The position numbers were made by a program, and so were the translations under genes. Positions 20,812 to 22,589 of a stretch of 64,000 nucleotides of DNA are shown in pieces (within the stretch, counting starts at the first letter, position 1; every line of letters starts with the position of its first letter). This stretch comes from a phage. Location: the sequence record PZ338877.1, one strand, 5' to 3'. The notes under the pieces were generated by a model that was not told where the DNA came from, made no database searches, and saw nothing but the letters and a program-made list of their open reading frames with translations.

Positions 20812-20865
20812 CATAGAAAATTTGGTGAGTATACTGAGCAGCATAAACCAACGGGTACTCACCAG

Positions 20866-20904
20866 CATCACTTAAGGGTCTTCTAAGAGGGTTTTTAAGT
20901 GATG
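20866..20904. repeat. 39-bp palindromic element, copy 1
   Basis: CATCACTTAAGGGTCTTCTAAGAGGGTTTTTAAGTGATG; near-identical copy at 22396-22434. Confidence 0.8.
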
Positions 20905-21035
20905 TACGGCAATGCAAGGCTAGGTCCGGTTATGTCAGGTCGGGTCCGGTTAGGTTCTGTGCGGGTAGTTAGTCTCAGCTACATTAAAATGAGACTTACC
21001 TTTTTAAAAGGTCTTTAAACAGGGTCTTTTAATAA

Positions 21036-21118
21036 GGTTTGGTCTGGTAGGGTAGGTTGGGGTAAGGTTAGGTAAGGTGAGGTAAGGTCGGGTTTAGTAT
21101 GGTATGGGTGGATGGTAG
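21036..21118. repeat. G/T-rich tandem short repeats (GGTNNG units)
   Basis: GGTCTGGTAGGGTAGGTTGGGGTAAGGTTAGGTAAGGTGAGGTAAGGTCGGGTTTAGTATGGTATGGGTGGATGGTAG. Confidence 0.8.
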
Positions 21119-21215
21119 TAGCCACGTTAAAAATCTACCAAGTTTCTAAAGAGTCTTCTGTTGAGGGTTCTTTACAAACAACTTAACAATCAACTAAAGT
21201 GTGGAGCTAAATGCT

Positions 21216-21803
21216 ATGAAACTGTTAAATATCAAAATCACTGGTACTCGTCCTTTCCTGAGCCATAACGATACGCTGTCAGACCCATTAAACCCTCTGA
21301 CAAAATATCACAAGTCTCTGTCCAGTAAACGTAAAAAGACTGACGAAGACTATGCGCTATTAGCAGAAAGCCAACTGGTAACATCCTGTTACTACGATGA
21401 GCAGCTAGGTTTTGTTATGAACGGTGAGATGATTGAGGCTTGTATCAAGTCTGGTGCAAAACTCAACAAACTTGGTAAGGTAATTGACCGAGCCATTATG
21501 CTGACAGATGTAGTCTTCCCGATGACTATCAAGAACTGTCCAGCAAACCCACAAGAACTTGCTAAGAATCCAGACTTTATCTATGCTAAGTCTGTTAAGA
21601 TTGGCACAGCACGAGTTATGAGCTACCGTCCAATCTTCCGTGACTGGTCTGTAGAGTTCGGTTTGATGTTCGATGAAGAGCAAATTACCAAAGAAGAACT
21701 CTTGATGGTTTTGGAAAATGCTGGTAACCTTTGTGGTGTAGGTGATTGGCGTCCACGCTTTGGTCGTTTTTCTGTAGAAGTTATTTCAGAAGGTAACGTT
21801 TAA
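21216..21803 (+). CDS. hypothetical protein (cassette gene 1)
   Basis: 195 aa from first in-frame ATG with GGAG RBS; flanked by paired repeat regions. Confidence 0.5.
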
Positions 21804-21805
21804 TT

Positions 21806-22246
21806 ATGAATACAAAAGCATTAGCAGCAAAGTTTAGTTACGGTGACACTGTATCACATTCTGAGATGGACACCTTCTTAGGGATTGTGAAGCCAACTTA
21901 TCAAGGTGACATTGTTAAGTACGAAGATGAAATGAAGGCTTATGCGCTTACACGTCTAAACCGACTTGAGAAGTTTATTGAGAAGCTTCTTAAAGAAGAG
22001 AAGATTTATCTGGTTGCTTCAATGGGTGTTGGTTATCGTGTGGTTGAACCTAAACATCAAGCAACTATTGCAAAACGCAAAATGTCTGGTAAGATTGGTC
22101 GTGCTTTAAAGCAAGCCACTCAAGCGATTGAGAATGTGAATACTATGGCACTTAGCCACCAAGAACGTTCACGACTAATTGAACAGCAAAACCACTTAGC
22201 TGCTATGAAAGCTAACATTAACAAGCAACGTAGAAAACCTTTCTAA
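21806..22246 (+). CDS. hypothetical protein (cassette gene 2)
   Basis: 146 aa; followed by strong terminator. Confidence 0.5.
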   Translation: MNTKALAAKFSYGDTVSHSEMDTFLGIVKPTYQGDIVKYEDEMKAYALTRLNRLEKFIEKLLKEEKIYLVASMGVGYRVVEPKHQATIAKRKMSGKIGRALKQATQAIENVNTMALSHQERSRLIEQQNHLAAMKANINKQRRKPF

Positions 22247-22257
22247 GTTGACTAGGT

Positions 22258-22280
22258 AGCCTCTTCGGAGGCTCCTTTTT
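22258..22280 (+). terminator. rho-independent terminator
   Basis: stem AGCCTC/GAGGCT with TTCG loop then TTTTT. Confidence 0.65.
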
Positions 22281-22310
22281 AAAAGGTCTTTTAAGAGGGT
22301 CTTTTAATGA

Positions 22311-22365
22311 GGTAAGGTGCGGTCTGGTAAGGCATGGTATGGTTGGGTGAGGTGAGGTATGGGTA
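22311..22365. repeat. G/T-rich tandem short repeats
   Basis: GGTAAGGTGCGGTCTGGTAAGGCATGGTATGGTTGGGTGAGGTGAGGTATGGGTAG. Confidence 0.8.
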
Positions 22366-22395
22366 GTTAATCGGAGCTACATTAAAATTCGATTA

Positions 22396-22434
22396 CATCA
22401 CTTAAGAGTCTTCTAAGAGGGTTTTTAAGTGATG
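22396..22434. repeat. 39-bp palindromic element, copy 2
   Basis: CATCACTTAAGAGTCTTCTAAGAGGGTTTTTAAGTGATG; 10-bp arms CATCACTTAA/TTAAGTGATG. Confidence 0.8.
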
Positions 22435-22437
22435 CTC

Positions 22438-22512
22438 GGTCGGGTTTGGTCGGGTTTGGTAGGGTGTGGTTCGGTATGGTGTGGTTTGGTGTGGTATGGT
22501 ATGGTATGGAAG
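22438..22512. repeat. G/T-rich pentamer-like tandem repeats (GGTNT)n
   Basis: GGGTTTGGTCGGGTTTGGTAGGGTGTGGTTCGGTATGGTGTGGTTTGGTGTGGTATGGTATGGTATGG. Confidence 0.8.
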
Positions 22513-22545
22513 GATGGCAGTAGCCTTATAAAAAATCTGCCAAAT

Positions 22546-22589
22546 AAGCTATAAAATCTGTTGACAAGTCAGGTGTTATAGCTTATTTT
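22546..22589 (+). promoter_or_regulatory. sigma70-like promoter with overlapping operator-like inverted repeat
   Basis: TTGACA (22561-22566) - 17 nt - TATTTT; flanked by 8-bp inverted repeat AAGCTATA/TATAGCTT; about 45 nt upstream of 22634 gene. Confidence 0.35.

Follow-up and report, generated by a model that had tools for sequence, protein, structure and literature searches.

VIPR, short for Viral Interference Programmable Repeat, denotes RNA-guided DNA-silencing systems that were first reported in 2026 preprints (bioRxiv 10.64898/2026.04.26.720920, 10.64898/2026.04.26.720927). They represent a newly reported way for RNA to read DNA, in which a non-contiguous guide is held on a small protein, Vipr, a RAMP homolog of ~20 kDa with an RRM core, a glycine-rich loop and a thumb, and the preprint authors propose that they predate CRISPR (bioRxiv 10.64898/2026.04.26.720920, 10.64898/2026.04.26.720927). 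In type II systems, the guide RNAs (vrRNAs) consist of 9-16 GGY/NN (YNNGG) repeats and an invariant 3′ tail with a pseudoknot, and they flank the vipr gene (bioRxiv 10.64898/2026.04.26.720920). Cryo-electron microscopy (cryo-EM) showed that one Vipr protomer per repeat sequesters the GGY and that the 3′ pseudoknot caps the filament (bioRxiv 10.64898/2026.04.26.720927). The model system is SUSP1, in which vrRNAs of ~100 nt are bound by Vipr and the target is repressed (bioRxiv 10.64898/2026.04.26.720920, 10.64898/2026.04.26.720927). In this study, we analyzed positions 20812-22589 of a phage DNA stretch of 64,000 nucleotides (record PZ338877.1; the whole stretch is called the window), which an earlier note, made from the letters alone, had described as a two-gene cassette flanked by paired G/T-rich tandem repeats. 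We are highly confident that this region, carried by a Felixounavirus, is a VIPR locus of type II and belongs to the SUSP1 clade. The kind of system is not new, since VIPR is already known and the locus is re-identified here within an experimentally studied clade; its value lies in annotation, target assignment and the observation of guides without a vipr gene. What is added here is modest: the guides of this phage are assigned, palindromes and boxes are recognized as a single spacer-hairpin family, and evidence is given that vipr and its neighbor vap are recurrently lost through recombination and that orphan vrRNAs are prevalent, those of Felix O1 included.

Class 1 CRISPR-Cas systems, with their Cas7 filament on crRNA, resemble VIPR in that a RAMP-fold protein polymerizes on a guide RNA while its thumb flips bases periodically, in that a constant handle caps the variable guide, and in that several guides are carried per precursor (bioRxiv 10.64898/2026.04.26.720920, 10.64898/2026.04.26.720927). 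Unlike them, VIPR uses a non-contiguous guide in which two of five RNA bases and two of three DNA bases are paired, and VIPR of this type lacks CRISPR repeats, Cas1/Cas2, a protospacer-adjacent motif and a nuclease, and is encoded by a virulent phage.

The closest described relative of the window locus is the SUSP1 system itself (phiSUSP1, KT454805.2; PDB 36pp). The Vipr protein of the window is identical to phiSUSP1 ALH47069.1 at 191 of 195 residues (98%) and matches PDB 36pp_D, 'SUSP1 Vipr protein', over residues 1-195 with E = 6e-128. Nine residues named as RNA or DNA contacts (bioRxiv 10.64898/2026.04.26.720927) are all present at their published positions (H17, K33, E71, M72, R138, C173, D177, W178 and R179); at position 175, both the window protein and the PDB chain have V, and the text of the paper gives T175. 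The accessory protein Vap1 is identical at 145 of 146 residues to the product of the gene 3′ of vipr in SUSP1, and it has no Pfam or PDB match. Searches with the two proteins returned nothing above the curated cut-offs of Pfam, and PHROGs gave families of unknown function only. Both loci lie between a DNA ligase gene and a 127-aa gene (19487-20623 and 22634-23017 in the window), and they are alike in Vipr (98%), Vap1 (99%), GGY/NN guides, tail types and the class of satellite target. They differ in layout, with two vrRNAs upstream and two downstream in the window versus one and three in SUSP1, in the sequences of the guides, all four of which are distinct from those of SUSP1, and in the genome that carries them, which is a Suspvirus for SUSP1 and a Felix O1-like myovirus (Felixounavirus) for the window.

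The guide RNAs are recognizable from their repeats. The region holds four GGY/NN arrays with a strict 5-nt period, all on the + strand. If up to two mismatches are allowed, the pattern (GGTNN)4GGT has 40 matches, all inside these arrays, where shuffled sequences lead one to expect 0.05, and there is none outside them in the 64-kb window. The earlier note had seen one repeat module on each flank; the modules are real, and there are two per side, each consisting of a 39-nt hairpin element (PAL or BOX), a GGY/NN array and a constant tail. The flanks (20812-21200 and 22247-22560) are paralogous, as it had proposed, and form the repeat families D1-D4. Across 71 distinct arrays from 30 loci, the consensus is 80% G at the first position, 77% G at the second and 86% T/C at the third, and the two N positions are near uniform, with each base at 14-35%. 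The tails fall into four paralogous types told apart by their 5-bp hairpin stems, and a 4-bp pseudoknot pairs the last repeat units with the hairpin loop. Among 15 distinct tails, five of five hairpin pairs and three of four pseudoknot pairs covary, and no non-canonical pair was found in the hairpin or the pseudoknot. The boxes that had been noticed as shared between the flanks, AGCTACATTAAAAT at 20977 and 22375 and AGCC...AAAAATCT(A/G)CC at 21120 and 22522, were recovered, as were all other elements that had been listed. Rfam 15 gave no relevant match at E <= 1 in 20000-23500 and no covariance model for the vrRNAs there.

To place the locus among its relatives, 29 related loci and phiSUSP1 were compared. 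The promoter, the hairpins and the tails are nearly invariant among the related loci, and the arrays are almost wholly different with the 5-nt phase kept, even between phages that are otherwise ~90-95% identical. The number of modules ranges from 1 to 5. An independent line of evidence comes from an exact scan of IMG/VR for (GGTNN)5GGT, which matched >120 contigs, many with Felix-like degenerate arrays. A Vipr homolog was found by tblastn in the DNA around the array at 28 of 120 loci that had been collected by the DNA pattern alone; the repeat and the protein are thus independently tied across very different viruses.

The variable bases of the guides match foreign DNA. Guides were converted into xNN patterns by the published 1-nt-skip rule, and each window guide was scored against 11 satellites with 200 shuffles per guide; the invariant final one or two units, GGTAT and the beginning of the tail next to it, were excluded. 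For three of the four guides, a satellite matches at 86-96% of the NN positions, and none of the 200 shuffles was as good in any of these cases. The best target of vrRNA2 (25/26 NN) covers the ribosome-binding site and ATG of a 236-aa satellite gene in Escherichia coli O157:H7 Vac_07.1, and that of vrRNA3 (17/18 NN, found in 5 of 11 satellites) is a terminator-like hairpin ~120 nt upstream of the same gene. The vrRNA4 target (24/28 NN) lies in a serine-recombinase gene, where the skipped base is the wobble position of the codon. The predicted target sites include L157 6581-6618, L152 14324-14349 and L155 11723-11763. No comparable self-target was found in the 64-kb window, in which the best matches of the four guides reach 65-78%; these are in the range of shuffled guides for three of them, with one match above that range for vrRNA3. 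When all guides were scored against seven satellites, 33 of 70 distinct guides reached an NN match of at least 80%, compared with 0-3 for unit-shuffled guides. The matches are also confined in space: in a 32-kb stretch of E. coli TL-14, nine guide matches at or above 80% fall in the satellite island and none in the 20 kb of flanking chromosome. The targeted 236-aa gene, which is called 'transposase' by PGAP in some genomes, has no Pfam match.

The island came to light through an exact 10-unit seed of vrRNA2, which matched a single IMG/VR contig that led to this ~12-kb element of E. coli (locus L152 8115-20240 in TL-14; also L151 and L155-L163). Its products include a large serine recombinase, a tape measure protein and a baseplate protein of Dit-like type, and in TL-14 and several other strains its insertion site is a DUF72 gene flanked by yecN and yecD. 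Its Dit-like and tape measure proteins are 68% and 28% identical, respectively, to tail proteins of the window (35345-38361). Satellite-related DNA is present in 570 of 5,426 complete E. coli genomes. Strains with the targeted island include O157:H7 Vac_07.1, TL-14 and 1297KP. The island fits the satellite that parasitizes SUSP1 in the preprint (bioRxiv 10.64898/2026.04.26.720920). Since it borrows Felix-type tail genes, the locus most likely protects the phage from this parasitic satellite of E. coli chromosomes. The satellite genes aimed at by the window guides are now identified by computed matches, and Felix O1-type phages, which are used in Salmonella typing and biocontrol, differ in whether they carry this anti-satellite weapon. 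The satellites are very mosaic and also occur in other chromosomal neighborhoods, next to yciI, mdtG and ymdF.

The satellites carry GGY/NN arrays of their own, with the phage type-c tail, in stretches without an annotated gene (L151 460-514, L155 3373-3437 and L156 2916-2965, all on the - strand). These were found by pattern search, and BLAST of the tail and hairpin stretch against E. coli genomes returned nothing. One satellite tail shows a further compensatory stem variant, GTCG/CGAC. vrRNAs on the satellites themselves are also reported in the preprint (bioRxiv 10.64898/2026.04.26.720920).

Taken together with the SUSP1 work, a mechanism can be outlined. As judged from the sequence, promoter P1 would drive + strand transcription across two genes for guide RNAs, then vipr and vap1, and then two more guide-RNA genes. 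The precursor would be cleaved to vrRNAs of ~100 nt, such as those shown for SUSP1, and we infer that the cuts may fall at the 16-18-bp hairpin before each guide. Each vrRNA would comprise 10-15 GGY/NN pentamers and a constant 3′ tail predicted to fold into a hairpin and pseudoknot. One Vipr per GGY would then build a helical filament with only the NN exposed, as seen by cryo-EM for the 98% identical protein. The NN would pair with double-stranded DNA with every third target base skipped, and the complex would silence transcription, as has been shown for SUSP1; three of the four guides, by the targets computed here, would be aimed at the ~12-kb satellite island. The earlier proposal of a protein-binding array thus survives in part: one Vipr protomer is expected per GGY unit, and the array acts as RNA and not as a double-stranded DNA site.

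Several points weigh against this interpretation. About 30% of the array units deviate from perfect GGY. For vrRNA1 no significant target was found among the 11 satellites, where its best score of 18/24 was equaled by 17 of 200 shuffles, and its exact 10-unit seeds matched nothing in IMG/VR or in the GTDB representative genomes. Expression, processing and binding in this particular phage are extrapolated from SUSP1 and would have to hold here as they do there, and the papers that support the VIPR mechanism are preprints. That the spacer hairpins serve as processing or insulating elements, with RNase III as a candidate, is likewise something that we infer.

The positions of the features are collected in Table 1. 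The two genes are in place, a terminator-like hairpin lies where a strong terminator had been noted behind them, and the two 39-nt palindromes, which differ by one base (G/A), are the PAL elements.

Table 1. Features of the VIPR locus, in window coordinates
Feature	Position	Strand	Description
Promoter P1	20808-20835	+	sigma-70 type, TTGACA-16-TATACT; consensus at 11/12 positions
Spacer hairpin PAL (palindrome 1)	20866-20904	+	5′ of guide 1; 18 bp, several G·U; -16.6 kcal/mol, z = -5.7
vrRNA1 array	20903-20962	+	12 GGY/NN units
vrRNA1 tail	20963-20995	+	hairpin GTCTC/GAGAC, pseudoknot GTAG/CTAC; whole vrRNA1 20903-20995
Spacer hairpin BOX	20999-21037	+	5′ of guide 2; -11.1 kcal/mol, z = -3.1
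vrRNA2 array	21036-21105	+	14 GGY/NN units
vrRNA2 tail	21106-21139	+	hairpin GGTAG/CTACC, pseudoknot GTGG/CCAC; whole vrRNA2 21036-21139
Third paralogous hairpin	21142-21179	+	between vrRNA2 tail and vipr; -13.6 kcal/mol
vipr	21216-21803	+	195-aa RAMP-family protein
vap1	21806-22246	+	146-aa accessory protein, directly 3′ of vipr
Terminator-like hairpin and T-run	22258-22281	+	after vap; overlaps start of following spacer hairpin
Spacer hairpin BOX	22274-22312	+	5′ of guide 3; RNA fold
vrRNA3 array	22311-22360	+	10 GGY/NN units
vrRNA3 tail	22361-22393	+	hairpin ATCGG/TCGAT, pseudoknot GTAG/CTAC; whole vrRNA3 22311-22393
Spacer hairpin PAL (palindrome 2)	22396-22434	+	5′ of guide 4; -17.5 kcal/mol, z = -6.3
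vrRNA4 array	22433-22507	+	15 GGY/NN units
vrRNA4 tail	22508-22541	+	hairpin GGCAG/CTGCC, pseudoknot AAGG/CCTT; whole vrRNA4 22433-22541
AT-rich hairpin and U-run	22542-22594	+	19 bp; -17.8 kcal/mol, z = -5.3
Promoter P2 of next operon	22561-22589	+	embedded in AT-rich hairpin 22542-22594

The palindromes belong to a larger family. The BOX elements (CCTTTTTAAAAGG...AAGG) and the element between the vrRNA2 tail and vipr, which is conserved in 18 loci, are hairpins of the same kind, a point that the earlier note had overlooked. Folded as RNA, all of these elements form stems of 16-18 bp with several G·U pairs each and energies of -11 to -17.5 kcal/mol. Their inner stems are conserved and their outer stems are compensatory (CAUCAC/GUGAUG, CCUU/AAGG and GUUU/AAAC), the outer stem of BOX covarying with the PAL type. 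This dependence on G·U pairs points to the RNA level and not to DNA-binding palindromes. Since mature SUSP1 vrRNAs of ~100 nt correspond to repeats plus tail, the spacer hairpins fall between the mature RNAs, and these G·U-rich hairpins, which stand ahead of each guide and ahead of vipr, may be processing signals, perhaps RNase III sites, that set the vrRNA 5′ ends. A term search of the preprint text found no discussion of a processing role for such hairpins. In some phages (L002 3417-3480; L009 and L012 near 3136-3200), the apical part of PAL is replaced by an insertion of ~22 nt, TTTAAATTATA(C/T)TCGATAG(G/A)(T/G)TATCTCATAGGG, and the basal stem is kept.

P1 is kept in all 29 related loci and probably drives the upstream vrRNAs and vipr-vap; the AT-rich hairpin at the other end likely serves as its terminator for the locus. 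An 8-bp inverted repeat, GGTGAGTA (20824-20831) and TACTCACC (20856-20863), encloses the P1 -10 box together with the initial ~20 nt of the transcript and is conserved in all related loci. Possibilities for it include an operator and a structure formed only in read-through transcripts from the ligase operon. All nearby genes are on the + strand. Between the ligase gene and P1 there is also a 62-aa Lys/Arg-rich open reading frame (phrog_5428, 20623-20811), which is also present in radambza. Felix O1, BPS17W1 and Tf lack it, and in them only a few bases separate the stop codon of the ligase gene from the promoter that follows.

Recognition of the locus gives names to two genes left hypothetical in the public records examined. 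Among several dozen of the 231 phage records that match 20600-22700, nearly all of them Ounavirinae of Escherichia, Salmonella or Shigella, vipr is labeled 'hypothetical protein' or 'Phage protein' or is unannotated. In phage wV8 (EU877232.1 / NC_012749.1), where both genes are annotated as hypothetical, part of the modules is annotated on the opposite strand as repeat 'DR_4' (L001 3176-3233 and 4569-4626), and these repeats are now accounted for. The Felix O1 genome paper makes no mention of the repeats.

The alternative that survives best is that the two genes are moved by a mobile or recombining cassette and that the main role of the paired repeats is to form its ends, an idea which the earlier note had offered together with the comparative-genomics check that was carried out here. 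The check did show a cassette that is variably present between the repeats in related genomes: the 1031-bp vipr-vap unit is all-or-none in the related loci, and Vipr at >=90% identity was found by tblastn in 118 phage records compared with 231 records that have the promoter-leader-hairpin region, so that ~113 relatives lack vipr. Moreover, in locus L010 the window guides 1 and 2 are joined directly to the terminal tail, exactly what a crossover between paralogous tails would give. This much favors a recombining cassette. Against mobility, neither the cassette nor its immediate surroundings contain a recombinase or transposase, and the repeats have been shown to have their own function, as guide RNAs for the protein between them. 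They are not the ends of a mobile element; they and the two genes form one functional system, and the gain and loss of the cassette is explained as a side effect of ordinary homologous recombination between paralogous modules. We therefore regard the cassette-end explanation as very improbable and retain the VIPR assignment.

Cassette loss leaves guides behind. In phages without vipr, one or two promoter-driven vrRNA modules persist in the interval from P1 to P2; Felix O1 (L003 2496-2720) is one of these phages, and tblastn found neither Vipr nor Vap in its whole genome. Orphan vrRNAs were likewise seen in L005, L006, L007, L008 and L022 and in L004, L010, L011, L019, L024 and L028. The orphan guides are visibly no more decayed than those of vipr-carrying phages: perfect GGY units make up 63% of orphan arrays vs 70% in vipr-carrying phages, and a satellite match at >=80% of NN was found for 7 of 15 orphan guides vs 26 of 55 guides from vipr-carrying phages. 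The orphan guides could be functional, either loaded on Vipr supplied in trans by co-infecting relatives or read by an unrecognized second effector, an idea that we consider rather unlikely and put forward tentatively. The tail-bearing vrRNAs of the satellites presumably use Vipr in trans as well.

A replication origin, in the form of iterons bound by an initiator or of a promoter-driven R-loop on the G-rich non-template strand as in T4 oriF and ColE1, was another reading to be weighed. A strong promoter does lie just upstream of a G-rich non-template tract, and the locus is situated among replication genes (DNA polymerase, ligase, dihydrofolate reductase and thymidylate synthase); like iteron origins, it has tandem direct repeats in non-coding DNA next to such genes. 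Iterons, however, are typically double-stranded sites of 17-22 bp, and their origins also comprise a cognate initiator gene and an AT-rich unwinding element; the signal here is strand-specific and at the RNA level, with a 5-nt period in which three of five bases, the GGY, are conserved in strict phase and the remaining repeat content is hypervariable. There is no initiator gene, as the two genes are Vipr, of solved structure, and Vap1, and Pfam shows nothing Rep-like. In addition, the module number of 1 to 5 among close relatives speaks against an origin, which also does not predict skip-rule matches between the variable bases and foreign DNA at a level far above chance. The iteron claim of the earlier note was accordingly abandoned, and we give an origin practically no credence.

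A last reading, that the arrays act as structures themselves, either as two-tier G-quadruplexes or as a TRAP- or CsrB-like sponge for a ring-shaped RNA-binding protein of the host, draws on the idea that GG every 5 nt could form G-quadruplexes and on the likeness of the periodic triplets to the 11 GAG/UAG triplets that TRAP binds, and it has next to no chance of being correct, as a quadruplex leaves the conserved pyrimidine after GG unexplained, the near-uniform NN composition that still matches satellite genes is likewise unexplained, and we know of no host protein with GGY-array specificity. TRAP of Bacillus recognizes ~11 conserved triplets with variable spacers of 2-3 nt, one subunit per triplet, and its likeness to VIPR is by analogy only. 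TRAP is a closed 11-mer ring of another fold whose spacers carry no information, whereas the spacers of VIPR are the information. By cryo-EM, the GGY is held by Vipr (bioRxiv 10.64898/2026.04.26.720927), and a VIPR locus remains our reading of the arrays.

Other candidates were set aside. A CRISPR array, which has identical repeats of 23-50 bp in alternation with unique contiguous spacers and is accompanied by cas adaptation genes, was rejected, as the guides are interrupted by GGY, cas1 and cas2 are absent, and the units of constant tail and hairpin with variable guides are only analogous to it. Translation of the repeats was rejected because the period of 5 is not a multiple of 3 and there are in-frame stop codons. 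The TRAP- or CsrB-like sponge, the R-loop origin and the two-tier G-quadruplexes were dropped after the match to the VIPR literature, as were a T7-type primase site array (GGGTC/TGGTC), pairing with the 3′-ACCA ends of tRNAs, Shine-Dalgarno mimicry and a Rho-loading site on the antisense strand.

The IMG/VR scan also returned repeats of other appearance. A near-invariant array, GGTTAGGTTAGGTAAGGTTAGGTTAGGTAAGGA, occurs in many unrelated contigs (L033, L034, L039, L050, L054, L056, L093, L113, L116 and L120), in several cases with a short 5′ hairpin, gtatcc...ggatac. Unlike the vrRNA guides this array is not hypervariable, and it may represent something else. Long tandem series of degenerate GGTNN arrays with short constant spacers were seen in L065 (2217-3404, with at least 12 arrays in tandem), L053 (3396-3841, - strand), L051 (3331-5227), L061 and L125. 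No Vipr homolog was found in the fetched DNA of L061 and L125; that of L065, L053 and L051 contains a weak one (E = 2e-10 to 4e-4), and these tandem series are probably other VIPR types.

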